DNA of 64,000 nucleotides from a bacterium (GCA_963681965.1 OY820579.1:2336001-2400000); one strand, 5' to 3'. Counted from the first letter of the stretch, positions 14,009 to 31,545 are shown. Notes: generated by a model not told the origin, from the sequence alone. Numbers and translations: made by a program.

Positions 14009-16162
14009 TTATTTGATTAGTGAAATCGGATAAATCCGATTTGAGTTATTCACTCGTAAATGAATGAAATATTTTCCACTGGCAAATTTTTCTGAGTGCC
14101 AGTTAAATTGATAGAATCCTGATGAATACTGATCGCATGCAACGACAGCCACACTTTTTCCCAAAACGTTGAAGATTTCAAGTCGAAGCATACTCGCTGT
14201 CGGCAATGATAACCTAATATGAAGAATCGAGTTGAATGGGTTCGGAAAGGTCGTAAGTTGAAACGTTTCGACAACGGGATGAAATTCTACCAGTTCTGAG
14301 GATGTCACCGAGGCTGTCGAGCGATAATTACTGTAGTAGAGACAATTCATGGAATCGAGATAGAGCTTCTTGTAATCACTTTCAGACGTTTCAAGAAGAG
14401 TCTCCCAATGAGAATTGTTATGTAACAACCGTTTCACATATTGATGAATATTGGAGGTTAAATCGGTATTATTCTCGATTATAAATAAATCGCCTTGAAT
14501 ATTATCGAGAAAACAGTTTATCGATTGGTTGGATAATAGAAATGGGACTGTGAGCCAATCGACACCGCCATTGTTCGATTTAAAATGACCTCTGGCGGTT
14601 TGCGCGAAGACTGCATGTCCAGACCAAATCTTGAGAGGTTGTTCATTAAGAAGCTGATACTGAGACGTTCGATGCCAACTTGTGCCTAGATTCGAAGAAC
14701 GTTCGAGGTATGTCGTATCATTAGAAAATGTCAACTGATAGATTGTATTGGACGAATCACATCCAATGATGGAATTTTCAGATATTAAATGCCAACTGCA
14801 ACCTTGATTGGTCGAATATTGATTCCCTCGGATCTCTGTTCCATCAGGTAAATAACAGAAATCGCCAGTACTTTGAGCCGTATCTCGAGACCAATTCTCA
14901 CCATGATCGTTTGAACGAAAAATATCGTCATTGGTTGCTAAAATGATCCTTCCATTTTGTTTCTTACAGATTCCCTTAATTCCAATCGATTGTCTGCCAT
15001 CGATACAAATCTTACGAGTGATCGTTTGCCAAGTCGTACAATGGTCGCGACTAATCAACAAACCGAGATCTGCAGTGATCATCGAACCGTTATTTGTTTC
15101 CAGCCAATACTCATTTCGATAAGCTTCGAATGCAGAAAAACATTCAATCCAATTAACTCCTTGATCAGTAGAACGATAAGTAGCCTCATCAGCACGAATG
15201 ATTGTTCCAGATTGTGATACACCGAACGTTGGGTATTCCGATATTAGATTCGGTGAAAAATATGTCCATGTCGTTCCGAAATCGGTGGACCGCGCTAAGT
15301 CACTTCGATTTAGAGAAGGTCTGAAGACCTGAACGTAAATTCTTCCTAATGAATCAATAGAGAAGTCATCACTTACTAACTCAAATCCCGGCACCGACTG
15401 CCAATGTAGCCCCCCATCGAGCGACCGATACAAACCAGTCCAAGCAGATCCACTTGCTAGGATTACGGTATCGTTGACAGCTTCCATATCGTTAAAATGA
15501 AAAGGTCCTGGTACCGCAATGGTTTGCCAGTTTTCCCCGTTGTCAGTTGATCGTGCGACATAATGGTCCGGTGCCCAGCCGGTATCAAGTGGTAGAGAGC
15601 CGCTGCATAGAATTGTATGGTTAGGAGTAATTGCAAGGCAATTGTTGAAACGGACGGGAATTGATCGCGATACCCAGGATACACCATCGTTGGTTGAGAT
15701 AAATAACTTGCTGGTATCGATTTGTAAATATTCGTAAGACATCACATAATGGCGTCCATCGCTAAATACACGATGTTGTTTTAAATCGTAGCTACAAAAT
15801 ATTGGCTCGTTTATCCAGTTTATGCCGTTATTTGTCGTTGAGAATGTTCGGAATTCTCCTGTATATAACCGTGTAAAATACAATTTTCCCGTTCGGTCGA
15901 TGCAAATCGAAGGCAATGGCGAATCGTTCCAATTCTCAAGTCGACCTACGAAAATCCAAGTTACACCATCATCAGTTGATCGAATAAGATTGTAACTTCC
16001 ATGACCCTCAGACCAAATTAACACATTGTTATTCACGCCATTTTGAACTAACCTGGTTAGTCCTCCGAAACTGCTAAGTTGTTCAAAAGTAGGTTGCCCA
16101 AGTCCTACTTGGGAGCTTAACATTGCGAGAACAGTAAACATCCATTTAGTTAGATTGCTCAT
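14009..16162 (-). CDS. Secreted BNR/Asp-box beta-propeller protein with T9SS-type C-terminal domain
   Basis: Many (R)STDxGxTW Asp-boxes, a signal peptide, and FPNPFN..FNVLGK..ASGKYF C-terminus. Confidence 0.88.
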   Translation of the reverse strand: MSNLTKWMFTVLAMLSSQVGLGQPTFEQLSSFGGLTRLVQNGVNNNVLIWSEGHGSYNLIRSTDDGVTWIFVGRLENWNDSPLPSICIDRTGKLYFTRLYTGEFRTFSTTNNGINWINEPIFCSYDLKQHRVFSDGRHYVMSYEYLQIDTSKLFISTNDGVSWVSRSIPVRFNNCLAITPNHTILCSGSLPLDTGWAPDHYVARSTDNGENWQTIAVPGPFHFNDMEAVNDTVILASGSAWTGLYRSLDGGLHWQSVPGFELVSDDFSIDSLGRIYVQVFRPSLNRSDLARSTDFGTTWTYFSPNLISEYPTFGVSQSGTIIRADEATYRSTDQGVNWIECFSAFEAYRNEYWLETNNGSMITADLGLLISRDHCTTWQTITRKICIDGRQSIGIKGICKKQNGRIILATNDDIFRSNDHGENWSRDTAQSTGDFCYLPDGTEIRGNQYSTNQGCSWHLISENSIIGCDSSNTIYQLTFSNDTTYLERSSNLGTSWHRTSQYQLLNEQPLKIWSGHAVFAQTARGHFKSNNGGVDWLTVPFLLSNQSINCFLDNIQGDLFIIENNTDLTSNIHQYVKRLLHNNSHWETLLETSESDYKKLYLDSMNCLYYSNYRSTASVTSSELVEFHPVVETFQLTTFPNPFNSILHIRLSLPTASMLRLEIFNVLGKSVAVVACDQYSSGFYQFNWHSEKFASGKYFIHLRVNNSNRIYPISLIK

Positions 16163-16682
16163 TTGTATGTTTTTACAATTAGATATAACATATTGACAAT
16201 GAACTGCTAATTACTGAAAAAAACTGGTTGCGCTCAACCGATACTTGCACAATGACATAAAATGATTCCACAAATCCATCTAATTCGATCGACCATCTTT
16301 CGCAACTTTCTACTTAGTACTAGTATACAACTGGGTGACTCCCGATCAACTTGCAGGATCTTCGAATTGGAGCTGATTGTTGGAAACCTTGCGGGAACAT
16401 GCATCGTCATTGCCTCTTCGATCTGTGTCTCGACATCACAATCCATCCATCGGAATATTAAGCATGTTGTCTTTTGATAAACTAGTAAATCACTATTCAA
16501 TTGTCAATAGCGAAGAGACAATTTTTAAAAATACTTATCTTTCGTCAACTTATATATTGAATTATACTAATGTTAGAAATATTCCACATAAGTAATCAAC
16601 TTATTAGAGAAAATATACCAATAACTATCTTTTAGAATTAAATATATTCAGGTTTGAGCCAGACAATTTTAACGAAATAGTA

Positions 16683-16838
16683 TAAAATAGATCCCGACGC
16701 GAGTTTGCGCCCATCGAACGTGACGCGATAGCTGCCACTATGCTGTTTCTCATCCACCAGCGTCAGCACACCGCGATCCATCTGATCGATTAGTATTTAT
16801 TTCACTCTACCGGTTATCGGAATCAGAACCTGGATTCC
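16683..16838 (-). pseudogene. Remnant of a T9SS-type C-terminal domain
   Basis: Minus strand translates GIQVLIPITGRVK*ILIDQMDRGVLTLVDEKQHSGSYRVTFDGRKLASG, then a frameshift into IYF. Contains an internal stop. Confidence 0.7.
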
Positions 16839-16959
16839 ACTTTTCGCTAAATCTGCACTAACGAATTGCGAAAATTTTGATTCATTGCATTTCGATTGAT
16901 AATCGGGAAGTACTTTAGTTATCTTTTAAAATTAATTCTTGCACCAACAAGGGACAAAT

Positions 16960-19900
16960 ATGGCTGCACCAAAGCGGAAGTCGGGTACGGAATTGTTTAT
17001 CGTCGACAACAACGATTCCGATTGGAAAGTTCGCTCCTACATCAGCGACTGGTGCGAATTGTCGAAAGCGATTGATATCGCTACCGGCTACTTCGAGATC
17101 GGTGGTCTATTATGTCTGAAAGAAAAGTGGCAGCAGGTCGATCGGATCCGCATTCTGATGGGTGACGAAGTATCGTATCGTACCAAAGCGGCGTTTACCA
17201 AAGGGCTACAGCGAATTCAAAGCACTCTGGATCGAAGTCTCGAAGATGAAAAGTTACGCAACGACTTTTTAGAAGGTGTCCCCGCGATCGTTGAAGGCAT
17301 TCGTTCCGGTAAGATCGTCTGCCGGGTCTTCCGGAAGGATAAGTTTCATGCTAAAGCCTATATCACACATGGTCGTGCTGCGGTGATCGGATCGTTCGCG
17401 CTGGTTGGTTCATCAAATTTCACTTTTCCGGGCTTGAATGATAATATCGAACTAAATGTTCAAATTACCGGCTCCGATGTTAGTTCGTTACAGGATTGGT
17501 TCGAACAGCATTGGAATGAAGCGGACGACGTTACTGCCGATATTCTCCGCACCTTCGAACGTCACACAAATCCGCATCAGCCATTCGAAATCTGGTTGAA
17601 ATCGCTGTATGAGTATTTTTACGGGCGTGAACTCGATGCTGACAATTGGGATCGTGAAAAGTCCGTGATGTACAAGATCCTCGATAAATATCAGCGAGAT
17701 GCCTATAAGAATCTGATGCAAATCGCTAGTAGGTTCGGCGGGGCGTTTCTGTGCGATGGGGTCGGGTTGGGGAAAACCTATGTCGGATTGATGTTACTGG
17801 AACGATTGGTTTTCAAAGAAAAAAAGCAAGTCGTCCTGTTCGCCCCGAAAGCCGCTCGCGAAGATGTCTGGAATACAGCTTTGGAACAATATATGCCCAA
17901 AGCGAAGAGTGAATTCGTCAATCTGGTAGTCTATAATCACACGGACCTTAACCGCGTAGGGGATTGGCCGGAGAAGATGGCGCTGACGGTCCGCGATGCC
18001 GATGTGATCCTGATCGATGAGGCGCACCACTTCCGGAACAAGGGGGTTGCCGGCGAGCAAAAATCGGCGCCATCGCGCTACCGCAAGTTGCAAGACTACA
18101 TCCATTCGGGAGATCGTCCGAAGCAGATCTACTTCCTGACCGCTACTCCGATCAATAATACGGTACACGATTTCCGCAATATGATCGAGCTCTTCACCAA
18201 AGACAATGAACAATACTTTTCGACTACGATTGGCATTCACAATCTTACCGCCCATTTTATCCAGTTGAACGCGCGAATTCTCGGGAAAACAGCTAAAACG
18301 GTACAACTTGCTTTAAATCTGGAAAACAATCTGTTCGATGCCGAGCGGGTGTTGCATTCGGACAAGATCTTCGATGCCTTAGTGGTGCAACGCAGCCGCG
18401 CCTATGTGAAGGAGAGCCAGTTGCAGAGCGAGGGCGGCGTTTCGATGTTTCCCGAGCGAGAGATCCCAAAAGTCGTGCCGTATAATTTGAAATCGACCTA
18501 CGGAATACTGTTAAAGAGTGTGGAACAAGCCTTTCGGAACGATATTCCGTTATTCAATCTTAGTGTCTATTATCCGTTAAAACATTGGATCGGTGGTGAA
18601 ATCGTTGGACTAGAACGCGCTTTCGCCGATGGTCGTCAGAAAATGGTCGTATCGCTGATCCGTACGTCGTTCCTTAAGCGATTCGAAAGTTCGGCGGTTG
18701 CATTCGAAATCTCATGTTGGCGATTGTTAAAAAATCTTCTTAAATGGATCACAGTTCATGGAACTTCAGAGAATTCAAAACGTTCGATCCATTCTTGGAA
18801 GCTGATTAATGCACCGCTAATTAATTACCAAGTTCAACACGAGCTCGATCTTTATCCGACCGACACAGAAGAAGACGAAGTAGAGGATTTCTTAAGCGAC
18901 GAAAGTCTAGCGGAAGTCATTCAGCTTGACGATCCAGAGAATTACGATATCGATAAAATAGTGGAAGAAACGCTAGTAGACTTATCACAACTCGCAGCTT
19001 TCCTGCAGGAAGTTCGACAGGTCAAACCGGAGCGGGATGACAAGCTGAAATCGCTGATCAAGCTTCTTAAAACCGATCCGGTATTGAAGAAGGAAAAGGC
19101 GATAATCTTTACCGAATTCGCCGATACCGCCCGATATCTCGAACATGAATTGAAGAATGAGAAGATCAAAGGAATTTATCGGGTAGACGGCAGCTTTAAA
19201 CATGAGCAGCGTAGTGAAATCTTGCATCGTTTTTCGCCGTATTACAATGGGCGATCCTCAGTAGATCTCGCTGCGAGCGGGCAATCGGAAATCCGGATCC
19301 TGATTTCGACCGATGTCTTGTCGGAAGGCTTAAACCTGCAGGATGCCACCCGGCTTATCAATTACGACTTGCATTGGAATCCGGTGCGGTTGATGCAGCG
19401 GATCGGTCGTGTCGATCGCCGCATGAATCCGGAGATCGAAGCAAAAATTGTAGAGGATCACCCTGAACTTAAGGCAACCCGCGGGAAAGTCGCATTCTGG
19501 AATTTCCTTCCGCCCGATGAATTGAATTTATTGCTCGGACTGTTCCAGAAGGTATCGAAGAAAGTGTTGGTGATCTCGAAACTGCTCGGCATCGAAGGGC
19601 GCAAGCTGCTGACGCCAGATGACGAATTCGATCCAATCCGCGAACTGAACGAGCAGTGTGATGGCGAGCTATCCGAAGCCGAACGCCTCCGCTTGGAATA
19701 CGAGAAGCTGATGCGGGATTACCCGGAGCTGGCAGCCGAATTGCCGGACTTCCCGAATAAGGTCTATTCCGGTCGAGAGGCGCAACATAGCGCGAAAGCG
19801 ATTTTCTTCTGTTATCGTATTCCCGGACCCGATCCCGACCAGATCGATACCGAGACAGGCATGCGGTGGACGGAGCGGATGGGAAAAACCGTCTGGTATT

Positions 19901-20121
19901 GCTGCGATCTTGCGTCAGGAAATGTCACTGCTGATCTTACCGAGATTGCCCGGATCATCCGCACCGCTCCCGACACGTCGCGCCGCATCGCTCTGGATCG
20001 AACTCAAGTCACCGAGATTCGCAAGAAGGTCGAGCGGCAGGTGATACACGATGAATTAAGAACAGTGCAATCCCCGATAGGTGTTTCGCCGATATTAAAA
20101 TGTTGGATGGAGTTAAACTGA
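16960..20121 (+). CDS. PLD-nuclease domain fused to SNF2-family SF2 helicase
   Basis: FHAKAY..GSSNFT..GL..NIELN (HxK PLD). DGVGLGKT, IDEAHHFRN, LTATP, QRSR, IIFTEFADTA, STDVLSEGLNLQ, WNPVRLMQRIGRVDR. Confidence 0.92.
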   Translation: MAAPKRKSGTELFIVDNNDSDWKVRSYISDWCELSKAIDIATGYFEIGGLLCLKEKWQQVDRIRILMGDEVSYRTKAAFTKGLQRIQSTLDRSLEDEKLRNDFLEGVPAIVEGIRSGKIVCRVFRKDKFHAKAYITHGRAAVIGSFALVGSSNFTFPGLNDNIELNVQITGSDVSSLQDWFEQHWNEADDVTADILRTFERHTNPHQPFEIWLKSLYEYFYGRELDADNWDREKSVMYKILDKYQRDAYKNLMQIASRFGGAFLCDGVGLGKTYVGLMLLERLVFKEKKQVVLFAPKAAREDVWNTALEQYMPKAKSEFVNLVVYNHTDLNRVGDWPEKMALTVRDADVILIDEAHHFRNKGVAGEQKSAPSRYRKLQDYIHSGDRPKQIYFLTATPINNTVHDFRNMIELFTKDNEQYFSTTIGIHNLTAHFIQLNARILGKTAKTVQLALNLENNLFDAERVLHSDKIFDALVVQRSRAYVKESQLQSEGGVSMFPEREIPKVVPYNLKSTYGILLKSVEQAFRNDIPLFNLSVYYPLKHWIGGEIVGLERAFADGRQKMVVSLIRTSFLKRFESSAVAFEISCWRLLKNLLKWITVHGTSENSKRSIHSWKLINAPLINYQVQHELDLYPTDTEEDEVEDFLSDESLAEVIQLDDPENYDIDKIVEETLVDLSQLAAFLQEVRQVKPERDDKLKSLIKLLKTDPVLKKEKAIIFTEFADTARYLEHELKNEKIKGIYRVDGSFKHEQRSEILHRFSPYYNGRSSVDLAASGQSEIRILISTDVLSEGLNLQDATRLINYDLHWNPVRLMQRIGRVDRRMNPEIEAKIVEDHPELKATRGKVAFWNFLPPDELNLLLGLFQKVSKKVLVISKLLGIEGRKLLTPDDEFDPIRELNEQCDGELSEAERLRLEYEKLMRDYPELAAELPDFPNKVYSGREAQHSAKAIFFCYRIPGPDPDQIDTETGMRWTERMGKTVWYCCDLASGNVTADLTEIARIIRTAPDTSRRIALDRTQVTEIRKKVERQVIHDELRTVQSPIGVSPILKCWMELN

Positions 20122-23100
20122 TGAAACAGAATTTATCGACCAAGATTGAATTAGCGATTCAAAATTCGAAGAGTGAGTCTACATTTATAAAAAATCTCTT
20201 AATCGACACGCTTAATTGGCCGTTACAAGCGGATAAATCGGAATTTACCGACTTTACTTACGAATGGTATCAGCAAGATTTGGGGATCGAAAAAGACCAT
20301 AGCAAAGTGAAAATCGCCTATCAAATTCCCCCCTTTCGAGATGATAATCCCTGGGGAATTTTCGTCATCGAGTTTGCTGATACGAAATTTTTCGCTACGG
20401 GACGCGGTATCACGAAAGACTTGCGCGAGATGCTTCGCGGATTAACCAGCAAGAAGCAAGTTGTGGGACATTTCGAGCGGGAAGGTTTACTCTTCATTTG
20501 TACTTATAATTATGAATATTTCTCCTTTGCGCATTTTAAAAATCCCGGCATTAATTCGAAAACGACCCCGTTGGCAGCATTCGGGTGGGGACCTGACGAT
20601 CCGATTCATACAATCTGCGATTGCAATCTATCGCATTTGTGTTATTCTGACTCATGGACGAACGACGAATGGCGTAAAGAGTGGCAAACGGCCTTCGATG
20701 TCGAGCAAGTTACCGAACGCTTCTATAATGAATATGAGCGAGTTTTTTCCGATTTTGAGAATCGGTTAGTTGTCGAAAAAATCAAAGGCAAAGAGGAATC
20801 TGAAACCAAGCGGATGTTCGCGCAAACGATCTTCAATCGTTTGATGTTTCTACGGTTTATTGAGCGAAAGAATTGGCTTCAATTCGGTAAAGAGAAAGAC
20901 AATCACATATATTTGAACTCGCTCTATCGTGCTGGTGGTTATGACAGTAAGTCTTTTTATCTTGGACGGTTACGGCCGCTATTTTTTTATGGATTAGCGA
21001 AATATAATGAAGGTGATTCGCCAGCTTATGGGATAGTACCATTTTTAAATGGCGGTTTATTTAAGGAAGGAGATATCGATAAAGTCGTTGTCGATCTTCC
21101 TGATGATGTCTTTCAACCACTCCTCGCAAAAGATGGTCTATTGTATCGTTACAATTTTACCGTCGATGAATCGACACCAATCGATATCGAAGTCGGCGTC
21201 GATCCCGAAATGCTGGGAAAGGTGTTTGAGAAGGTCGTCACACGTCCGAAAGACCGAAAAGCAAAAGGCGCGTTTTATACACCCCGGTCAATTGTCGCAT
21301 TCATGTGCAAAGAGGCTTTGAAAGGGTATTTACCCAATTGTGAGCGCTTGATCGATCATTATGATGCTAGTGATATCAGTATTCAACAAGCAAAAAAACT
21401 AATTAAGAAAGTTGAAGCCGTAAAAATTTGCGATCCGGCGTGCGGTTCGGGCGCGTATTTAGTTGGGATGTTGCAGGAACTGTTTCAGATTTTGAAATTA
21501 CTCGATACTGCTGGTAAACTTGAAACCCCGAATATCGCTTATGAAGCGAAATTGAAAATAATACAGAACAATTTATACGGTGTCGATCTTGACGAATTTG
21601 CCGTCCATATCGCGCGGTTGCGGTTATGGCTTTCGTTATCGATCGATAACCCGATGCTTACTCCCGAACCGTTACCGAATCTCGATTATAAAATTGAATG
21701 TGGCGATAGCTTATCGGAATTGGTCCGCACTGAATTTGTGGGGATTGAAGATAAGGACATCAATGAATTTATCGAGATGAAAGAACATTATCTGAATATG
21801 CATAGTATCGATAAAGATGCATACGGCGAGAAAATCGAGAAAATCAGAGAACATTTCAGGATTTGTCGTGGTCGTGTGAAAGGATCGAAAGTATTTGATT
21901 GGGATATCGAATTTGCCGAAGTCATGCATACATACCCACTAGACAATGCTGGCTTCGATATTGTCATTGCGAATCCGCCTTATGGCGTAAAATGTAATGA
22001 AGTCCTACGAGACCGCTATTTTTCGGTTGAAGCCGATGGACAGAAACAGAGCCGGGATAGTTACGGGATTTTCATGGTTCGAGGTATCGAATTATTAAAG
22101 CCGGGTGGTTATTTTACCTATATCATTTCCGATACCTGGCGTACGCTTCGAACGCATTTACCGTTAAGAAAACAACTCCTTAGAACACGAATCGAACATT
22201 TTATCGATTTACCCGATTGGACTTTCGAAGCGGTCGTGAATACGTGTATACTATCCCTCCAAAAAATGAATCCGGAGGAATCGCATACCGTTATTGCCGG
22301 TGATTTGCGTAATCTACCGAAAAAAGATTGGAAAGATCTGGAAAAGCAATTAACGAATATTGCCGGGCACGGTCCTGATGTACAAACCACAACAGCAGCG
22401 AGGTATACCTACCCGCAGGAATTGATTAAATCGTATAACGGATTATCGTTCTTCGTAGCTTCACCGAAGCTATATAAATTTATGTCGGAACCATCATTTA
22501 CATCTGTGGGAACCATTGCGGATGTGGTTGTCGGTCTTCAGACCGGTGATAATAACTATTACATTAGAAAATATCCCGATGCACGAGGAAGCTATATAGA
22601 AATCGATAAACGAAAAGTATTGACTGAAGAAGAAATAACCAATTTAACCAACGATGAAAAGAGTAATGGCATTGACCCAGAGAAGTATAGCGGTCGACAC
22701 TTCTTACCGTATGATAAAGGGGGCGAATCTGATGCTAAAGGGGGGTGGTTGCCAAATTATTTTGTACCAACTGAGTATTATATCGATTGGTCAACAAAGG
22801 CTGTTGAACGTATGAAAAATGATAGGTCTTCACGATTTCAGAATTCAAACCACTATTTTATAAATGGTATTTCATTTTCACGCACCGGTCAATATGCTCC
22901 AACTTTTCGTTTTAATTCGAAGAGTGTATTTGATACTGAAGGTTCGAGCATTGATATTCAAGAAAATAATCAATCCCGAATATCACATTACATTCTGATA
23001 TCATATTTGTGTTCGAAACTTGCGAGGTATTTTTTCAAGTCCTTTATAGACCATACAGTACATGTTCAAGTAGATGAAATAAAAACACTTCCGATACCTA

Positions 23101-23897
23101 TTTCGATTTCCACTGAAATCAATAAAGAAATTACATCAATAGTTGAAAGAATTGTAAATATTCAATCAATTAATCGCATTGCGAACTACCTTCATGAACA
23201 AAACGAAATTGATCAAATCGTTTATAGTGTTTATGGTCTTACTAATGATGACATTCGCGAAATCGAGCTCTGGTACTGTCGTCGCTATCCGAAGCTAGCC
23301 GAAGCACAAGGCGTATTGGCTGAAGTAAAAACCAAATACGCTTCCCATCTACAACGGTGCGAATTAGTTCTTTCCAAACCACCACATTATTGGAAGTCGC
23401 ATCTACTCTTGCAATTGATTGCCCAAGGGGAAGGGCAACAACTCGAATTCAAAGCGACTTTTGCGCATGATCTTGCAACAAAATCCGAGAACAAAAATCT
23501 ACATTTGGAAGTATTGAAAACGATCGCCGCCTTTCTGAATTCGACTACAGGTGGAATATTACTGATTGGCGTCAAAAATTCCGGTGAGATTACCGGTATC
23601 GAGCAGGATTATCCATACTGTCAAACTGGACATTGCGACCGCGATGGTTTTGAGCTCCGGATCCGTTCGATGACAACCTCCCGTTTCGATCCACAACCGT
23701 ATGAGAAGATTCTCTTCACCTTCTTCGAAATTGATGGGAAGACCGTCTGTCAGATTAATGTCAAGCCGGAGCCTCGTCCCGAAGGAATTTACCTTGATGG
23801 CGATTTATTTATTCGCGACGGCAATAAAACCCAGAAATTGACCGGTGCCGATATCGGTCGCTGGGTTGCGAATCGAACCACGCATTCCTCCGCCTGA
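20121..23897 (+). CDS. Eco57I/Type IIG-like N6-adenine DNA methyltransferase with TRD and C-terminal AlbA_2 (Schlafen-like) domain
   Basis: TGATG coupling to the helicase. GAFYTP, ICDPACGSG, VIANPPY, TRD region. C-terminal GEGQQLEFK..TIAAFLNSTTGGILLIGV..FIRDGNKT. Confidence 0.9.
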   Translation: MKQNLSTKIELAIQNSKSESTFIKNLLIDTLNWPLQADKSEFTDFTYEWYQQDLGIEKDHSKVKIAYQIPPFRDDNPWGIFVIEFADTKFFATGRGITKDLREMLRGLTSKKQVVGHFEREGLLFICTYNYEYFSFAHFKNPGINSKTTPLAAFGWGPDDPIHTICDCNLSHLCYSDSWTNDEWRKEWQTAFDVEQVTERFYNEYERVFSDFENRLVVEKIKGKEESETKRMFAQTIFNRLMFLRFIERKNWLQFGKEKDNHIYLNSLYRAGGYDSKSFYLGRLRPLFFYGLAKYNEGDSPAYGIVPFLNGGLFKEGDIDKVVVDLPDDVFQPLLAKDGLLYRYNFTVDESTPIDIEVGVDPEMLGKVFEKVVTRPKDRKAKGAFYTPRSIVAFMCKEALKGYLPNCERLIDHYDASDISIQQAKKLIKKVEAVKICDPACGSGAYLVGMLQELFQILKLLDTAGKLETPNIAYEAKLKIIQNNLYGVDLDEFAVHIARLRLWLSLSIDNPMLTPEPLPNLDYKIECGDSLSELVRTEFVGIEDKDINEFIEMKEHYLNMHSIDKDAYGEKIEKIREHFRICRGRVKGSKVFDWDIEFAEVMHTYPLDNAGFDIVIANPPYGVKCNEVLRDRYFSVEADGQKQSRDSYGIFMVRGIELLKPGGYFTYIISDTWRTLRTHLPLRKQLLRTRIEHFIDLPDWTFEAVVNTCILSLQKMNPEESHTVIAGDLRNLPKKDWKDLEKQLTNIAGHGPDVQTTTAARYTYPQELIKSYNGLSFFVASPKLYKFMSEPSFTSVGTIADVVVGLQTGDNNYYIRKYPDARGSYIEIDKRKVLTEEEITNLTNDEKSNGIDPEKYSGRHFLPYDKGGESDAKGGWLPNYFVPTEYYIDWSTKAVERMKNDRSSRFQNSNHYFINGISFSRTGQYAPTFRFNSKSVFDTEGSSIDIQENNQSRISHYILISYLCSKLARYFFKSFIDHTVHVQVDEIKTLPIPISISTEINKEITSIVERIVNIQSINRIANYLHEQNEIDQIVYSVYGLTNDDIREIELWYCRRYPKLAEAQGVLAEVKTKYASHLQRCELVLSKPPHYWKSHLLLQLIAQGEGQQLEFKATFAHDLATKSENKNLHLEVLKTIAAFLNSTTGGILLIGVKNSGEITGIEQDYPYCQTGHCDRDGFELRIRSMTTSRFDPQPYEKILFTFFEIDGKTVCQINVKPEPRPEGIYLDGDLFIRDGNKTQKLTGADIGRWVANRTTHSSA

Positions 23898-24039
23898 TGT
23901 CCTCCATCGGCGATCACGGCGGCTGGCCGATTCAGTGACATATGCAATCGAATTTTCATCGCTGACAATGGAAGTCGCAATTTTATAAGGAATGAATCAC
24001 AGGAATTGCACAAAAACCACCGTATTCAATGGAGACATC

Positions 24040-26067
24040 ATGAAAAAATACCCACTTGTTATTCAATTTGTGTACAACCCGGAATCAGCCGATGCCGAAG
24101 GGCTTGCACAATCGCTCCACGATGTATTCAATCGGAACCGCGCTGTGCCGGGATTGCAAATTCCCACGCGCTTCATGCCCATGCATCGACACGTTCCTGA
24201 TATTTCGTCACAATTGCTTGAAGAAGCCGAACAAATTGTCTATGTCTTGCTTTTGGACGATTACATCACTACGAATCACAAAAATACCGAGCCAGTAACT
24301 TGGTCGAAATACATCCTAGATATATGCCGCCAAGCTCAAAGGAAGAAATCAAATGCCCGTTTAATTCCGATTCAGCTAACCCGCTACGGTCTTCCTGATG
24401 CTCCGCCGATGTCAAATCTGAATGCCGTCCGTGCCTGGGCAATTTCCGACCGACAGGAGCGCGATGCACATATCGCACGATACATCACTCAAAATCTGAT
24501 CCGCTACTTGTTACCCGAACAAAAAAACAAAGATGCCGTACCAATCGAGATCTTTATCAGCCATACCAAATTGGATTTAAATACTGATCCTTTTGCCGTA
24601 AATCAGTTGATCGAGTATTTGACGATCAATCGTCCGGTAAAAGGATGGTACGATGAGGGTGACATTGAACCGGGATCAGAATTTGGCGAGAGAATTTTTA
24701 GCGGTGTAGAAAAATCCTCGATGCTCGTTATTGCTACCGATCATTATTCCACTCGAACATGGTGTCGGAAAGAATTGATTCACGCCAAACTGAACAATCG
24801 CCCGATTGTTGTCGCCAATGCGATTTCCAACAAAGAGAATCGCAGTTTTCCTTATCTGGGCAATGTACCCGTTATTCGCTGGCAGAATAACCCGCGCGAG
24901 GTTATTGATCTCGTGTTGCAAGAAACTTTGCGTTCGCTGTTCGTGACGCGCGTTTTACAAAATGAAATTGCAAACCAGCAATTTATTCCCAATCCTCCTG
25001 AGTTACTGACGCTGAAGCATCATTCACAAAATCATCGACGAAAGAATACGAAAGTGTATTTTTATCCCGATCCGCCATTGAATGAAGAGGAGCGACTGAT
25101 TCTACAGAATGATCGGATTCACTATACGACGCCATTGCAACATTTTGCCGACCAACATCAACCAACCAGGCTCCCAATGATTGCACTTTCGATTTCAGAA
25201 TCGTCGGATATCGGCGATTACGGATTACGAAAGTGTCATCTGGACGAGTTTTACTTTGAATTATCGCGATACTTACTACTAGCTGGTTACCGGCTTGCTT
25301 ATGGTGGCGATCTCCGTAATGACGGGTATACGCTAAGACTCGTAGATGTAACCCACGATCCTGCGCTCGAAGTTATCTCCCAATCGAGACCGGCACGTGC
25401 CAACAATCGTAAACCGCTCGTTTGTTATCGTCCTTGGCCAAAAAGTAAAATCCCATTGGAAGCGTCGCAAGTTTTACCCGTCGCTGAATGGATCGCTTGT
25501 CCGAAACCTGCTGAAAAATTCTTTAATTTCACGACTGGAAAACCGATTGGAAAGGATTCGCTTCGCAGATTTGAAATTGCACTTGGTTTGACTGAGATGC
25601 GGAGAAAGCAGTCAAAAGAATGCTTAGCTCGCATAGTGATTGGCGGCAAGCTCGGTAGAAAAAATGATGAGTATTCCGGAATTCTACCGGGGACGTTAGA
25701 AGAGACGCTCTACAGTATCCAATACAGTAAACCAGTCTATCTAATCGGCGCCTTCGGTGGCTGTGCCAAAGCGTTGAGCGATCAGATAGTACACAACATT
25801 CCACGCAATGAACTGACGGAATATTTTCAAGCTTTAACACCTCACCGAAAGCTGTTAGAAAAACTCTACACAAGCCAACGCGTAAGGTTTCCATCACTTG
25901 AAGAATTTTCAAAAACTTGCGATATAAACGGAAGTAAAATGTTAAATAACGGTCTGGATTCAGCCGATAATCTTGTATTGTCGGAAACCCGCTCACCCGA
26001 GAAGATCGTGGAGTTGATTTTGAAAGGGCTGTATCAACATCAACCTCGACGGAAATCAGTGACGTAA
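24040..26067 (+). CDS. TIR-SLOG (cluster-2 type) protein with an additional degenerate TIR-like N-terminus
   Basis: TIR: IFISHT..WYDEGDIEPG..YSTRTWCRKEL..RPIVV. SLOG: IALSISES..LAYGGDLR..ARIVIGGK..YSG.LPG.LEE..PVYLIGAFGGCA. GGAG RBS. Confidence 0.85.
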   Translation: MKKYPLVIQFVYNPESADAEGLAQSLHDVFNRNRAVPGLQIPTRFMPMHRHVPDISSQLLEEAEQIVYVLLLDDYITTNHKNTEPVTWSKYILDICRQAQRKKSNARLIPIQLTRYGLPDAPPMSNLNAVRAWAISDRQERDAHIARYITQNLIRYLLPEQKNKDAVPIEIFISHTKLDLNTDPFAVNQLIEYLTINRPVKGWYDEGDIEPGSEFGERIFSGVEKSSMLVIATDHYSTRTWCRKELIHAKLNNRPIVVANAISNKENRSFPYLGNVPVIRWQNNPREVIDLVLQETLRSLFVTRVLQNEIANQQFIPNPPELLTLKHHSQNHRRKNTKVYFYPDPPLNEEERLILQNDRIHYTTPLQHFADQHQPTRLPMIALSISESSDIGDYGLRKCHLDEFYFELSRYLLLAGYRLAYGGDLRNDGYTLRLVDVTHDPALEVISQSRPARANNRKPLVCYRPWPKSKIPLEASQVLPVAEWIACPKPAEKFFNFTTGKPIGKDSLRRFEIALGLTEMRRKQSKECLARIVIGGKLGRKNDEYSGILPGTLEETLYSIQYSKPVYLIGAFGGCAKALSDQIVHNIPRNELTEYFQALTPHRKLLEKLYTSQRVRFPSLEEFSKTCDINGSKMLNNGLDSADNLVLSETRSPEKIVELILKGLYQHQPRRKSVT

Positions 26068-26583
26068 TCAGAATGTGGAACCGAAAAGAACTCAACAGCG
26101 TAAGTAATCGGGAGGTCTGATTGGTCCTTTAGAGGCTTGTGGAAGTGCACTGAGAGGCATCTCTCAAAGTTTGATGTTTAGGAATGGTTTGCTTATCTGA
26201 TTATGTAAGTAACTCTCTTATTGTATTGTTATTACTGATCTTATTGTTTTTAAAAAGTTGCCGCGGGGTTGAATAATTCACATTCTTTGATGCAAACGGG
26301 TGATATTTTCATTGCGAATCCGTGCGATTACTTGAGAAATTACCCTTTTATTAGTGGAAACGCTTGCGAAATGAGTCCGGACATTTTATCTTATCGCGTC
26401 GTTCGATTTGTCTTGTTGTTTTATTTGACGGAACAACATAATTGTCGAATGAGCTTGAAACGAGATGTGAAATTTTTCTCGACCGCACCACATGAGTCGA
26501 AGCTTCCATCTCTTGATCGTGCGCATCCTGCTTTGTTGCACTTGATCGAAAAACGAAATGCACTGGACAAGGAACAGAACATA

Positions 26584-28083
26584 ATGGGTTTGACGAACCG
26601 CGAAACTGACGAAACTTTTCGTGATGATGCAAATTCATCGGATCCAAATCCCACCCCAAGACAACCGAAACTTTTCGCAAAGTCAGCAATAGATTCTTCG
26701 GTTCACTCCAATGATAATGGAAACTCAAATGTTCCCCCGCAAAGTCCGGGAATGGGAATCACAAACTCATTTGATCATAACTATTGTGATAAAAAATTTC
26801 TTATTAACATGATTTATCCAAATATTGAGAAACTGGAGTTGGAGATAAATGACAAGAAAATTGAAATAAATGTTCGCGAATTCATGATTAATTTGTATGA
26901 AAATTTACGTCAAAGTCTTTTTCTCTGGAATTCCGAAAAACCATTACTATTAGACTGTAAATACAATAGCTTTGATCATTCTCAAGTAATATCAAACATA
27001 ACCAATAATGGATATCTATATGTTGCTGTTATTTGCAAAGGGTTTGAGCAACATAAAGTGTTCTGCGATGAATTATATAAATTACTAGTTAAATTTAAAG
27101 ATAATTTAGAATATTTAAAGATATTCACTATTGATGGAACAAAGCCGCCGGAACAATTATATCCTACCTTCGATTTAACGCATATTGACATTAATAATTG
27201 TGAAACCCCTGAGATGATTTGTAATTATTTAATCGAATACATGAAATCTGGTTCAATTTTATTAAATTTAAAAAAACGTTCTGAGAATGACGCAGAAAAA
27301 ATTGCCGCAACTTTTGAGGATCTTTCTTTGATTTCTTTATTCCAAAATCACACATTGGCACCTTCACTATGTTCGCTCATTGAATTTCTGCGTTTTTGCA
27401 AGGATTATAAAACGATAAACCTTATCTGTAGAGATCTAGCAACATTATTGTTCTATATAAACTCTCTAGATCAACTTGCTACTTTAAAAGACGACGATAA
27501 TACGAGCAGTAATTTTAGATCTAAATTATCTGACAAAGAATTAAATTCTTTAAATACTGGGTTATCTAAAATTCAACTCTCATTAAATAGTTTGGGCAAC
27601 TATTTGTTTTCTATAAGCAAAACGACTTTTGATAGTACTTCTTATACCAGTAAAGTAAATAATTCTATTTTTCTAGGTAACAAATTACGCGCAATTCTTG
27701 AACATAGAATTGGTAGACAATCTGGATCAAACGGTATTGATATTGATAATTCTATTTTTGTGATAAGATTTTTGTTAGAAAACATCGATGAAAAACTAAC
27801 CGTTACTTATAATAGCGCCAATGTTAATTTTATCATTAATACTATTCATAATAAAGATCGCTCGCTAAAAAGGGTTCTTAAAATACTTATTAGTGTATCA
27901 GATGATCATAACCAATGTACGATTGATAGTATGCATAAATATATGAAAAGGGAGATTCCGACTGTTGATAATGTCGAAAAGATGAAATCCTTAGTGACAT
28001 TCTTGAAAGCAACTTATGCACATAATCAAGAAGGATACTATCCATTATATACAAAAGATAGTAAACAGAGGGTATCGTTATGA
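26584..28083 (+). CDS. Hypothetical protein, possible highly divergent TIR-like domain
   Basis: Long AT-rich ORF (frame open from 26269; start uncertain). VAVICKGFEQHKVFCDEL..KIFTIDGTKPPEQL..HIDI follows TIR spacing. Confidence 0.7.
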   Translation: MGLTNRETDETFRDDANSSDPNPTPRQPKLFAKSAIDSSVHSNDNGNSNVPPQSPGMGITNSFDHNYCDKKFLINMIYPNIEKLELEINDKKIEINVREFMINLYENLRQSLFLWNSEKPLLLDCKYNSFDHSQVISNITNNGYLYVAVICKGFEQHKVFCDELYKLLVKFKDNLEYLKIFTIDGTKPPEQLYPTFDLTHIDINNCETPEMICNYLIEYMKSGSILLNLKKRSENDAEKIAATFEDLSLISLFQNHTLAPSLCSLIEFLRFCKDYKTINLICRDLATLLFYINSLDQLATLKDDDNTSSNFRSKLSDKELNSLNTGLSKIQLSLNSLGNYLFSISKTTFDSTSYTSKVNNSIFLGNKLRAILEHRIGRQSGSNGIDIDNSIFVIRFLLENIDEKLTVTYNSANVNFIINTIHNKDRSLKRVLKILISVSDDHNQCTIDSMHKYMKREIPTVDNVEKMKSLVTFLKATYAHNQEGYYPLYTKDSKQRVSL

Positions 28084-28628
28084 TAATTAAACATAACTTT
28101 GCTCAACATCCTATTGATGTGTTCTCACAGTTTTCTGAGATCGATGAAACGTCATTATATAATGTTTGGATTATTCTCAATAATCATCTTTTAAGATTAG
28201 AATCCATCAATGCATACAAAGAATTCGCCAGCAGTATTCTTGCTTTTTACAGGTTTTCGATTGATTGTTGTATTAGAAATAATTTTTCTAAATTTGGTTT
28301 TGACGAATTAATTTTTAGCATCTATGATGTTTACTATTCTGTCGGAATAAAACTTGAGATCGATACTACTATGCAATTTGACAAGGATGCAGATTTTGAA
28401 TTGATTAAAATTAATATTATCCCACTACTTCAAGACATAGTATCAGAAATTCGATATTTATCCGCTTCATTGCCCCTCTTAACTGTAAGTTCTGCTGAAA
28501 ACGATCCAGATAGTGAATCTGAAAGTAAACCTAAATTATTAGTTCTTCGAAATGCAGCATTTTTGGAACCTCTTGTTGATAGCTTGGATTTTTCGAAGAT
28601 GTTCAACCGTATCTGTCATTCTGAATAG
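28080..28628 (+). CDS. Hypothetical protein (182 aa, predicted helical)
   Basis: ATGA overlap with the upstream gene. Ends 13 nt before the next start. Confidence 0.7.
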   Translation: MIIKHNFAQHPIDVFSQFSEIDETSLYNVWIILNNHLLRLESINAYKEFASSILAFYRFSIDCCIRNNFSKFGFDELIFSIYDVYYSVGIKLEIDTTMQFDKDADFELIKINIIPLLQDIVSEIRYLSASLPLLTVSSAENDPDSESESKPKLLVLRNAAFLEPLVDSLDFSKMFNRICHSE

Positions 28629-28641
28629 TGTAGGAGAATTA

Positions 28642-31545
28642 ATGATTTCAATTTCACCTCTTAAATTAGACCTGCCTTCTATTTTCATTGGTTTATCTAC
28701 CCTCAGTATCCACGATGAGATAAACACTAAAGAAAACATTAACGATTTAATTATTGATCACGGTAAGTATTTTGGGAGATTGTGTCCTAATGATAATTAT
28801 TATAAATATTATTATAACCCTTCGTTTTATTATATGTTTAGTAAATTTGATTTATTGTCAATTTGCCTAACAGACGATTATCAATTAGGAACACAGAAAT
28901 TTGGATCACATCATCCTGATTGGAAAGGGAAATATCCCTTCCAATTTCAAACGATCATTGGACCATCTCCGAATAAAGATACAATTGAACTGTCCAAGGA
29001 AACATTTTTAAATCCAACAAATTGTCCACTAATAGCACTTTGCCAATTGAAAATCAATTGTTCGTTTATTATTGGAGGTGGTATAGAAATACTAAAGATA
29101 TTTATCGAAGCGATTAACGAGCACTTCAACGATTATAAACAAAAAAATTCAAGCTCCTGTATACATATACTTGTTAATAACTCTTTTTCTTGGCACGATT
29201 TAACAATACTTGTATTTTCAAATAGTTATATAGATATATTAAAATATATAGTTAATCTTCGTGAATTAACCTTGAATCGCCTTCTGAAGGATTCGCATTT
29301 AAGAAATAGATTCGAAAGTATAAGAAAAAGGTTATTATTTGAAAAAGAAACAAAATCTAAGGGAAATTTAAAGGTTGACAAAAACATAGATATTTATGAA
29401 TCACATTTATTTTCTGTATCTGTGACTTCTCTAGGGTTCGATTTTAAATATTTTGAAGAGTATAGTAATATTATTAGTAAGTGTAATGAAGGATATGAAA
29501 AATTTAAATTCAATATTAATAATATTATAAATGAAAAGAAGCCTTCTCTTTTTCCAATCAGACGGTGGATGACAAAGGCAGGTCACTTACAGTCTGCAAT
29601 TAATACACTTGAATTTCTTGATGATTGCGCTGATAATTCAAGTTTAGCCAAAATTTACCCTCGATTGCCATTTGGCGTAAAATATTTTGTTTGTACTGGT
29701 CGTGGTGGTGATCTAATAAACTATCCAATCAATAGCGTGCAAGACGATAAGGATAATAATATAGCTAATAAAAATTATTTGGATTTAAAAGCGTTAACTA
29801 GTAAGGAACTTATTGAATTTACATTAGAAAATCGATTTAAAGTCGATCAACACGATATTATTAGTGTTTATACATTCATATCAACTTTCTCTGATGAGGT
29901 TTTAAATGATGAGATTAGTCATGTTGAAAAAGAGAAGCATTTTGAACCAATCTTTGAGGATAAGTATCAACATAATGTAATAAAATACCAAACTACATCA
30001 GTAGGAAATTTTAACCAATTTCATAACTATATGAGACAAGGCGTAGCGATGGTGAATGATACTCGTTTATGTCATTCACTTGAAAAGTACAACCAATGCA
30101 TCCGCGACCGTTTACTTTTTTCAAATTTCATAGAATTGCGCGAAAGTATTAATGAATTCTTATTATCTGCAATAAATAGAATTAAATTAGGTGGAACACT
30201 AAATTCAGTTAATGAATACATTGGCTCCTTTGTCGATGCACTGGATGTTGCTTGGCGCAATCGCTATTACATGTCTTGGGATTTAAGTGATTTGACAGAT
30301 TTTAATCTGGAGTATAAAGGTGGTATTCAGTTGATTGTTACTGCAGTAAATGGAGCTTATAAAGCTATTACCAGTAATATCGGCGTTAAAGGATCTTTCG
30401 CATTTATTTCAGGATCTACTAGTGTAAAGGCAACTGGTAGAACAATGCATCTAAACTACGATGAAGTATTTTTTCCAGAATTCTTTGCTGTTCATGTTTG
30501 TCACGAAGCAGTAGAAAATTTATTGAAAAAAGTATACAATGATCGTATCTATGAGAAATTAGGTTACATCCAAGTACGAGATACTGAATATAGAAAATTT
30601 TTCGATGCGATGATTAATATTGTCAATCCTGACTTCGGCCCAAAAATGATTCAATCAGCTAATGAGAGAGTTATTAATAAATTTCCAAATTTTGAAAAAA
30701 TATTAAGAAAGCACCAAGTTTTATCCCAAGATCTCTGTACCGAAATATTCGCTGATTTTAATGCTTACTATTTCGTTTTTCGTAGAGATAAGGATTTATT
30801 TCTTTTTTGGTATCGACAAATGTTCCTTGGTGAGTCAGCTGCATGGATCAAAGAACCTGAGATTAGCAAGTTAAGCGAAACCGATGCAAAAAGTATTTTT
30901 AAATACTCAATCAACGAAGGTCTACTTTACCAATATTTATTACGCCTAGTTATTGTTCTTGGTCCAAATTCTAAAGATCTTATTTATGAATATTGGAAAG
31001 ATCCAGACCCGAAACTCTTTCGCTTAAAATACAGTAAATATACCGAGTTACACGATCTAGTCGTTGAGTTTTTTAAAGAACCAGCTCTTAAAGAATGGTT
31101 AGAATCTGTATATGGTTATTTAGAAGGTAAAGAGAAAGAGATCGGTGAAGCCGATGATTACTTACGTTATGAATTACTGAAAAATTCATTCGAGTCAGGT
31201 CATGTGATTAGTTACAAACAAACTGACATAGACAATCGCGCCAAGAAAACTTTTCAATTTACGACGTCCGTTTTGCATTCATATCTTAGACTTATGCATG
31301 AAAAAATAACTGATAACGATCCTGAATCTAAAGATGACAAATCACATATTTACTTAGTTGAACGCAAAGGCGATGGGTATATTAAGGTATATGATAATAG
31401 CCAATTTTGTTACGATATTCGAGGTGGAATGTATATTAACGATCACCAAAATAGATTAAATTATATGCGTTATCGTAACGTCCTCATGATGTCACTTTGG
31501 GATATGGCTACTAAAGATAAGATTCATGATATCGATATTTGTTGA
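28642..31545 (+). CDS. Hypothetical protein (~967 aa) with zincin-like HExxE...ExxAD motif
   Basis: AGGAG RBS then ATG 28642. HVCHEAVE at ~30493-30516 and EIFADF at ~30742. Confidence 0.8.
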   Translation: MISISPLKLDLPSIFIGLSTLSIHDEINTKENINDLIIDHGKYFGRLCPNDNYYKYYYNPSFYYMFSKFDLLSICLTDDYQLGTQKFGSHHPDWKGKYPFQFQTIIGPSPNKDTIELSKETFLNPTNCPLIALCQLKINCSFIIGGGIEILKIFIEAINEHFNDYKQKNSSSCIHILVNNSFSWHDLTILVFSNSYIDILKYIVNLRELTLNRLLKDSHLRNRFESIRKRLLFEKETKSKGNLKVDKNIDIYESHLFSVSVTSLGFDFKYFEEYSNIISKCNEGYEKFKFNINNIINEKKPSLFPIRRWMTKAGHLQSAINTLEFLDDCADNSSLAKIYPRLPFGVKYFVCTGRGGDLINYPINSVQDDKDNNIANKNYLDLKALTSKELIEFTLENRFKVDQHDIISVYTFISTFSDEVLNDEISHVEKEKHFEPIFEDKYQHNVIKYQTTSVGNFNQFHNYMRQGVAMVNDTRLCHSLEKYNQCIRDRLLFSNFIELRESINEFLLSAINRIKLGGTLNSVNEYIGSFVDALDVAWRNRYYMSWDLSDLTDFNLEYKGGIQLIVTAVNGAYKAITSNIGVKGSFAFISGSTSVKATGRTMHLNYDEVFFPEFFAVHVCHEAVENLLKKVYNDRIYEKLGYIQVRDTEYRKFFDAMINIVNPDFGPKMIQSANERVINKFPNFEKILRKHQVLSQDLCTEIFADFNAYYFVFRRDKDLFLFWYRQMFLGESAAWIKEPEISKLSETDAKSIFKYSINEGLLYQYLLRLVIVLGPNSKDLIYEYWKDPDPKLFRLKYSKYTELHDLVVEFFKEPALKEWLESVYGYLEGKEKEIGEADDYLRYELLKNSFESGHVISYKQTDIDNRAKKTFQFTTSVLHSYLRLMHEKITDNDPESKDDKSHIYLVERKGDGYIKVYDNSQFCYDIRGGMYINDHQNRLNYMRYRNVLMMSLWDMATKDKIHDIDIC

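Follow-up and report, generated by a model that had tools for sequence, protein, structure and literature searches.

Introduction

Prokaryotic Schlafens (pSlfn) were shown to be phage-triggered tRNases only in 2025-2026, each of them controlled by a fused domain. The enzymes with an Ex4(E/D)xK motif are activated by phage and are fused to sensors; a DUF262-Schlafen fusion gives broad defence, and the authors report no action of RorSlfn5 on DNA (PMC13056530). CbCash is a Schlafen tRNase that cyclic tetra-adenylate (cA4) switches on (PMC13462974, Nat Commun 2026), and in SLFN-pAgo the nuclease is rebuilt only when two single-lobe Schlafen domains pair (bioRxiv 10.64898/2026.05.29.728809). In the portions of these reports consulted, all three tested prokaryotic Schlafen systems cut tRNA, and the triggers of the three characterised ones are positive cues (a phage protein, cA4 and target DNA). 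Here, a bacterial locus was analysed in which a predicted Schlafen nuclease forms the C-terminal tail of a DNA methylase. The locus lies in a 64,000-nucleotide stretch of DNA (GCA_963681965.1 OY820579.1:2336001-2400000), which is referred to below as the window and is numbered from its first letter. The two genes encode a helicase-nuclease with PLD and SNF2 domains (gene 1) and an N6-adenine methylase that ends in a Schlafen/AlbA_2 domain (gene 2).

The closest described proteins are the 'direct fusions with methyltransferases' listed as Cluster 3, with HVT13099.1 (1294 amino acids, aa) as the representative (PMC13462974). Gene 2 likewise has a methylase of restriction-modification (R-M) type and a Schlafen domain in one chain. 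The two are similarly large methylases (~1250-1300 aa) and carry the Schlafen domain at the C-terminus, and the first 400 residues of HVT13099.1 show, by eye only, the motifs NRLxFxxF...GWL, LNGGLF, NFTxxESTP, VDPEMLGK and YYTP of the window family. The published class differs in that it was listed without experiment, and a PLD-SNF2 partner is not mentioned in the portion of the PMC13462974 text consulted; literature searches also found no description of such a partner for a methylase-Schlafen fusion. Supplementary file 21 of PMC13056530, the one file consulted for fusions in the 5,930-protein catalogue of that report, contains no 'Eco57I' fusion; it lists one N6_Mtase, two N6_N4_Mtase and two Methylase_S fusions. 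The methylase-Schlafen fusion class is therefore already in print (2026), and the window copy belongs to a known, uncharacterised kind. The idea of an RNase as second effector is also less new than was assumed in the original prediction, which was made from the sequence of the window alone (PMC13462974, PMC3710099, PMC12839542).

We lean towards reading the window pair as a horizontally acquired, two-gene R-M-like defence module, in which the methylase carries a pSlfn nuclease domain as second effector. For the family as a whole, a restriction-like module with a catalytic Schlafen effector is very probable. The evidence comes from the conservation of the fusion, the catalytic residues of the tail and the pairing of the two genes across genomes.

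Conservation and origin of the methylase-Schlafen fusion

The Schlafen tail (PF04326) is carried by 117 of the 120 best homologues of the methylase; the other three end right after the linker. By their source names these homologues span many phyla and include Microcystis, Planctomycetota, Zixibacteria, Chloroflexi and Desulfobacteraceae. Mean column identity is 62% in the tail vs 51% in the whole protein, and judged from this alignment the tail is conserved at least as much as the rest of the protein. Among viral contigs 19 pattern matches were found, none of which is a relative.

A phylogenetic tree of 127 rows was reconstructed with FastTree from the methylase core only, with the AlbA_2 columns excluded. 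The rows comprised every third one of P0004-P0122, another five named rows and all those locus open reading frames (ORFs) that have a full-start core match; L101, L115 and fragments were left out. The fused proteins formed one clade of 51 rows (47 fused) with a Shimodaira-Hasegawa-like (SH-like) support of 100, and the fused/unfused label changed six times on the tree vs a shuffled mean of 37.7. Four unfused rows lie within this clade. One of them (L089) is a split gene with the linker and the domain on the next ORF; in the other three (L120, P0066 and P0067) the protein ends after the linker. This topology fits a single origin of the fusion with rare losses. In the two loci left out by name, L101 and L115, the AlbA_2 tail is attached to a more distant methylase, and a PLD-SNF2 ORF lies upstream in both.

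The Schlafen tail and its third metal-binding residue

The tail of gene 2 matches SLFN_AlbA_2 at residues 1111-1247 (61.5 bits vs a cut-off of 25.3) and contains the catalytic Ex4(E/D)xK motif as E1111, E1116 and K1118. Its profile matches the solved structures of SLFN14, SLFN5, SLFN12, SLFN11 and CbCash, and the GVsD of the family aligns with GVDD of SLFN14. An AlphaFold model of the linker and tail has a mean predicted local distance difference test (pLDDT) of 85.1. Foldseek searches with the tail model returned 3lmm, SLFN13 (5yd0), SAMD9 (7ksp and 9o0d) and SLFN11, with E-values from 5.5e-07 to 1e-04, and the model has the Schlafen C-lobe fold. A predicted homodimer of the domain scored 0.01, which was used as evidence neither way. 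Pfam, profile and structure-model matches thus agree on the Schlafen-fold AlbA_2 domain with an ExxxxEFK-type motif that had been recognised in the original prediction, and both strings quoted there (GEGQQLEFK and AAFLNSTTGGILLIGVKNSG) occur in the translation of gene 2.

The catalytic positions are nearly invariant in the 117 fused members: position 1111 is E in 117, position 1116 is E in 113 and D in 4, position 1118 is K in 117, and position 1160, the third acid, is D in 113 and N in 4. A sporadic fusion with degenerate catalytic residues, which had been named beforehand as the outcome that would speak against the prediction, was not found, with 117 of 120 homologues fused and E, E/D and K in 117/117. 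The early caveat that the window reads GVKN instead of GVxD proved to be right, as N1160 stands where 113 of 117 family members have Asp.

The four members with Asn (the window copy, P0055, P0111 and P0119) sit in four different subclades of the methylase-core tree, each beside Asp rows; the change from Asp to Asn therefore arose several times. The AAT codon of N1160 is one transition away from GAT. Contigs of four sequencing runs from two studies showed no other letter at this codon, a comparison that hides rare variants and in which two of the runs may be the source of the assembly itself. A further 147 representatives (50% identity) from the wider AlbA_2 subfamily retain E/E/K; 132 of them have D at this position, 12 have N and 2 have K, and 1 has a gap. 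Because Asn occurs in 12 of these 147 with E/E/K intact, it may be tolerated, and neither a 'dead' nor an 'active' state is established. Asn at the third acid is thus a recurrent minority state. In SLFN13 mutation of any of the three acids diminished the activity, and neither Glu mutant had any activity left, even when the enzyme was highly concentrated (PMC5862951). The RNase of the window copy is probably weakened by the Asn at its third metal-binding position, and it is doubtful that it is fully active.

Pairing with the PLD-SNF2 helicase-nuclease

The plus strand between 16939 and 23897 is occupied by two long ORFs, 16939 (TTG)/16960 (ATG)-20121 followed by 20100/20121-23897. The helicase stop TGA (20119-20121) and the methylase ATG (20121) share an A, which confirms the TGATG coupling seen earlier. 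The start of gene 2 was set at 20121 because the database copy P0003 has 1258 aa; residue numbers follow P0002, which starts 7 codons upstream of the P0003 start. The methylase reading frame runs through a helical linker into the AlbA_2 domain, as originally described, with the Pfam match given above.

Genomes were scanned, one per species, with the family alignment as query, and the best 80 of at least 577 relatives were examined. An ORF with PLD and SNF2 domains stands beside the methylase in 54 of the 80 loci (upstream in 23, downstream in 31), with a gap of less than 300 bp in 20, and pieces of such an ORF in 10 more. The pair, which had been proposed to be R-M-like, is thus conserved. No PLD+SNF2 ORF was found in the remaining 16 loci, of which 11 are short contigs or contig ends and 5 have full flanks (L022, L025, L030, L056 and L079). 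Among the fused loci, a PLD and/or SNF2 ORF adjoins the methylase-AlbA_2 ORF in 10 of 13. Two of the others (L082 and L084) are fragments without an upstream side. The third, L022 from Chthonomonadaceae, has a full-length fusion (L022:9947-13768) among PrkA, DUF444 and PheS/PheT genes. The methylase and PLD-SNF2 pair is also widespread without a Schlafen tail, which makes the tail an addition to a restriction-like core.

Gene 1 matches PLDc_2 at residues 43-192 (36.4 bits, cut-off 27), SNF2-rel_dom at 251-420, ResIII at 248-405 and Helicase_C at 702-827; its top PADLOC model is 'C3a139 HKD+Snf2' (E 6e-56, residues 25-887). It contains the HxK...GSxN signature of the PLD superfamily (FHAKAY and VGSSNF). 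The His and Lys of HKD, the Ser and Asn of GSxN, and the GxGK (Walker A), DExH, motif III A-T-P and QRxGR motifs are invariant in 59/59 aligned partner helicases. Judged by these motifs, both the single HKD nuclease motif and the SNF2 ATPase of gene 1 are intact. Its C-terminal domain is modelled with a mean pLDDT of 68.6; Foldseek returned nothing at E <= 0.001 and VIA-align reached a Z of at most 4.3, with no clear PDB match, and an inactive restriction-fold domain as in helicases of BREX-related (BR) systems could be neither shown nor excluded.

Gene 2 matches MmeI_Mtase (429-512), Eco57I (490-704, 103 bits) and N6_Mtase (593-744) upstream of the Schlafen domain, and its best PADLOC matches are type IIG, PglX and DrmMI models. 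It has the gamma-class N6-adenine core of type IIG enzymes, with the S-adenosylmethionine (AdoMet) motif and NPPY; these motifs (D445-Y453 and N625-Y628) are invariant in 31/31 aligned members. The presumed target recognition region is conserved only inside the fused clade, because the profile matches of the unfused relatives stop near residue 740. In residues 1-190, only 8 columns reach 90% conservation, all of them non-acidic (120 and 31 aligned members), and the alignment to the PADLOC type IIG profile begins only at profile position 200. An N-terminal nuclease in the methylase was therefore ruled out, and the chain lacks a nuclease of the type IIG kind. By its predicted domains, gene 2 is an intact gamma-class N6-adenine methylase that has a recognition region and no restriction nuclease motif. 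The invariant motifs of the 59 partner helicases and the conserved adjacency therefore indicate a conserved module, with a nuclease-motor and an N6-adenine methylase that are both predicted to be active.

The AlbA_2 module on other proteins

A metagenome scan was made with the tail alignment; 80 of at least 383 relatives were examined, and 46 AlbA_2-carrying ORFs were scanned with Pfam. These comprise 18 with GmrSD_N, 2 with GmrSD_C alone, 1 HsdR-type protein (L150), 1 DUF499 ATPase (L134), 2 STAND/AAA ATPases, 3 response regulators, 1 with IF2_N and 18 with no other Pfam domain. Judged by these architectures, the AlbA_2 subfamily is a promiscuous terminal add-on. The AlbA_2 profile matched 11,876 representatives at E <= 0.001, 5,786 at 1e-10 and 343 at 1e-30 among 1.84 billion.

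In L065, L107/L108, L117, L131 and L133, GmrSD-AlbA_2 genes adjoin large methylases, and a PLD-SNF2 gene may or may not be present; the Schlafen tail therefore accompanies the restriction core unfused too. The GmrSD (DUF262)-AlbA_2 ORFs beside N6-adenine methylases are at L065:11433-13781, L107:8441-10603, L131:3215-5326, L133:3423-5552 and L117:8372-10639, and those of L065 and L107 also adjoin a PLD-SNF2 helicase. The DUF499 ATPase (L134:3705-6860) has the AlbA_2 domain at its N-terminus, and the type I HsdR-like protein (L150:4538-8227) has it at its C-terminus; both are additional restriction-type carriers of the module. Short proteins with the closest AlbA_2 tails (L091, L092, L094 and L102) were considered as split-off restriction parts and rejected, as they lie among housekeeping genes.

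Possible mechanism and alternative explanations

The methylase would mark host sites and read their methylation state. At unmethylated phage sites it would recruit or license the SNF2 motor subunit, which would translocate on DNA until two complexes meet, and two single-HKD domains would then form one DNA-cutting site. The same meeting would pair two single-lobe Schlafen domains, as in published pSlfn systems, so that tRNA is cleaved and translation stops. In Nuc and BfiI two HKD domains are needed for each cutting site, and type ISP enzymes work in a collision mode. If the module does have a catalytic Schlafen effector, recognition of foreign DNA is tentatively proposed as its trigger, and inhibition of the complex (guard or backup) is the less probable of the two; the remaining odds fall to other or regulatory roles. 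The data do not separate the foreign-DNA trigger from the restriction-inhibition trigger for the RNase. It is conceivable that the restriction complex is the sensor of a cis-fused tRNase, switched on either by meeting on unmethylated phage DNA or by jamming with an anti-restriction protein, and that the recurrent change from Asp to Asn in four subclades represents natural dimmer switches on a self-toxic effector.

The main rival to the foreign-DNA trigger is the guard model of the original prediction, in which the intact complex restrains the Schlafen RNase and a phage anti-restriction protein, e.g. a DNA mimic, releases it in the manner of PrrC/EcoprrI. PrrC is an anticodon nuclease that guards EcoprrI, and Ocr binds PglX-type methylases. 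The AlbA_2 subfamily is also found on other restriction proteins that have their own nuclease, such as GmrSD and the HsdR of L150. RNases on parts of R-M, BREX (bacteriophage exclusion) and BREX-related systems have been proposed as backup suicide effectors (PMC12839542, PMC3710099). However, nothing in the data points to an inhibitor sensor, and in the parts of the reports consulted none of the three characterised pSlfn systems responds to the loss of a partner activity. The guard model as a whole is thus considered unlikely. Of the earlier interpretation, the conserved R-M-like pair, the Schlafen-fold tail, the conserved fusion with its catalytic residues and the Asn caveat have stood; its trigger is the part that now ranks as a rival.

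A still less probable alternative is that the tail is a nucleic-acid-binding or regulatory module, which helps the complex to engage DNA or RNA and is no nuclease in the window. N1160 would suit this role, SAMD9 bound to DNA and a DNA-binding SLFN5 form are among the structures of the same fold, and some mammalian Schlafens lack the catalytic residues (PMC13462974). However, the conservation of E, E/D and K in all 117 fused members, and of Asp in 113, is not expected of a mere binding module, and Asn could still bind metal. That the Schlafen domain is a second DNA nuclease, which adds to or replaces PLD cleavage of phage DNA with no action on RNA, is very improbable. In its favour, the tail sits on a DNA-recognising protein and would be the sole nuclease in L022, where no PLD partner is nearby; against it, the tested prokaryotic Schlafens cut tRNA and RorSlfn5 was reported inactive on DNA (PMC13056530).

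Several points weigh against a two-gene module with a catalytic Schlafen effector. The window copy has N1160 in place of the third metal-binding acid, which is the GVxD Asp (D248 in rat SLFN13), and the corresponding Asp mutant of SLFN13 has diminished activity (PMC5862951). The restriction core presumably works untailed in most related loci, and the tail is therefore dispensable for restriction. The fused methylase of L022 has no helicase partner and is flanked by ~10 kb of housekeeping genes on each side. Promoter and terminator signals that might define an operon were at shuffle level in a scan of 16150-26300. Literature searches found no experiment on any methylase-Schlafen fusion. The need for two HKD domains and the collision model are taken by analogy from Nuc/BfiI and type ISP enzymes.

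If the proposal is true, a Schlafen domain on a restriction methylase would link the cutting of foreign DNA with a shut-off of translation, two layers that are usually studied apart. The fusion would also provide a defined trigger with sequence specificity, with which the activation of a Schlafen nuclease could be studied. Tests of the family are easy because it is large, occurs in many phyla and has only two genes. The Asn variant makes the window copy less suitable for such tests; it offers a natural comparison with the members that have Asp, which are the majority.

Locus features and genomic context

The features of the two genes are listed in Table 1.

Table 1. Positions of the two genes and their domains in the window
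Feature	Position	Strand	Basis
Gene 1: PLD(HKD)-SNF2 helicase-nuclease, 1053 aa from ATG 16960, ORF open from TTG 16939	16960..20121	+	Pfam, PADLOC
PLD-like nuclease domain, single HKD motif (FHAKAY... VGSSNFT)	17065..17514	+	Pfam PLDc_2
SNF2/SF2 ATPase core (GLGKT, DEAH, TATP, QRxGR)	17680..19419	+	Pfam SNF2-rel_dom, ResIII, Helicase_C
Helicase C-terminal domain, ~210 aa	19489..20118	+	Kept in partner helicases of many loci
Stop/start overlap TGATG, coupling both genes	20119..20123	+	
Gene 2: N6-adenine methylase + recognition domain + linker + AlbA_2 domain, 1258 aa	20121..23897	+	Translation, Pfam, database copy
N-terminal domain (P0002 residues 8-190), poorly conserved, without nuclease motif	20121..20669	+	
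Helical domain and gamma-class N6-adenine methyltransferase core (DPACGSGAYL, NPPY)	20688..22349	+	Pfam MmeI_Mtase, Eco57I, N6_Mtase
Presumed target recognition region	22350..23204	+	Matches C-terminal part of PglX and type IIG profiles
Conserved helical linker (IREIELWYCRRYPKLAEAQG...)	23217..23399	+	Alignment; helices in predicted model
Schlafen/AlbA_2 domain with E1111, E1116, K1118, N1160	23430..23840	+	Pfam PF04326
AAT codon of N1160, at the conserved Asp position of the family	23577..23579	+	

The genome is one contig of 4.24 Mb. One genome of the same genus has a short methylase-motif match alone (E 1.1e-5), two genomes of the same family have nothing comparable, and one genome of the same phylum has a broken fused copy with 48-50% identity. 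The distribution of the module among relatives is thus patchy, which was counted for horizontal acquisition. A second AlbA_2 protein is encoded in the genome at G000:C1:1439875-1440264 on the minus strand (locus L170, open frame of 436 aa).

The neighbours of the module are two secreted proteins with type IX secretion sorting domains, an integrase and a primase-like gene, a TIR-SLOG gene, three ORFs of low guanine-cytosine (GC) content without a family match, and an insertion sequence (IS) transposase; the surroundings look like a defence island. The TIR-SLOG gene (23992-26067, plus strand) begins 95 bp after the methylase stop and encodes a 691-aa protein with TIR (187-275) and SLOG cluster-2 (396-663) domains; in NCBIfam it resembles the TIR proteins of Thoeris and retrons only faintly. 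It was considered as a third operon member and rejected, as it is not found downstream of the fused long-flank loci scanned (L022 and L087); it is probably a separate defence gene. The three low-GC ORFs follow at 26269-31545 (plus strand; 604, 182 and 997 aa), with 30-35% GC vs ~44% in the region. They have no Pfam, PADLOC or NCBIfam match, are followed by an rve-family IS transposase (32562-33437, minus strand), and are a candidate for an unknown defence cassette. On the other side, a tyrosine integrase (329 aa) adjoins an 884-aa protein with an AEP-TOTE primase-like domain at 3202-6842 (minus strand); this pair is likely the edge of a mobile element near the island. Upstream of the helicase gene, the AT-rich intergenic region contains a GC-rich patch of ~140 nt (16660-16800), which may be what is left of another gene.

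Comparison with known systems

Every NCBIfam match of the pair is far below its curated cut-off, and the pair therefore belongs to none of the systems named by those models. Class 1 of DISARM (defence island system associated with restriction-modification) was rejected: there is no DrmA or DrmB (DUF1998) gene in the window, and DrmD scored 146.8 bits vs a cut-off of 610. BREX type 1 was rejected as well, since BREX_1_MTaseX (PglX) scored 175.4 bits vs 500 and no PglZ or BrxC is found among the window neighbours. A type IIG enzyme of the Eco57I/MmeI kind does not fit, as the methylase chain has no N-terminal PD-(D/E)xK endonuclease domain. A Type-2 BR system was also dismissed, with no DUF499 or DUF3780 among the ORFs from 3202 to 38875, though an HKD-SNF2 helicase is present.

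Some of these systems are nevertheless similar in part. In Type-2 BR a helicase with an N-terminal HKD nuclease is the primary effector, the system is R-M-like, and RNases are add-on effectors; its core, however, consists of a DUF499 ATPase, DUF3780 and a methylase in which the recognition domain is nested (PMC12839542). PrrC/EcoprrI and the HEPN-R-M fusions described in PMC3710099 also couple an RNase to restriction as a second line; whereas the nuclease folds differ, and PrrC is a separate protein. The window protein resembles RorSlfn5, EcoSlfn7, CbCash and SLFN-pAgo in the fusion of an AlbA_2 nuclease with an Ex4(E/D)xK motif to a sensing part; however, its sensor would be a DNA methylase with a helicase-nuclease partner.

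Class 1 DISARM shares profile similarity to DrmD, DrmMI and DrmC with the window pair, and a PLD and an SNF2 component with an N6-adenine methylase; the PLD and SNF2 domains are fused into one protein in the window. The type ISP enzymes of the LlaGI/LlaBIII type combine an Mrr-type nuclease, an SF2 motor, an N6-adenine methylase and a recognition domain in one polypeptide; they translocate from their site and cleave where two enzymes meet. The window pair has the same set of components and would be expected to work in the same way; it differs in being split into two polypeptides, in having a PLD nuclease and an SNF2 motor, and in the additional Schlafen domain. By analogy, the nearest working counterparts of the pair would be the type ISP enzymes and the DrmD/DrmMI/DrmC part of DISARM.

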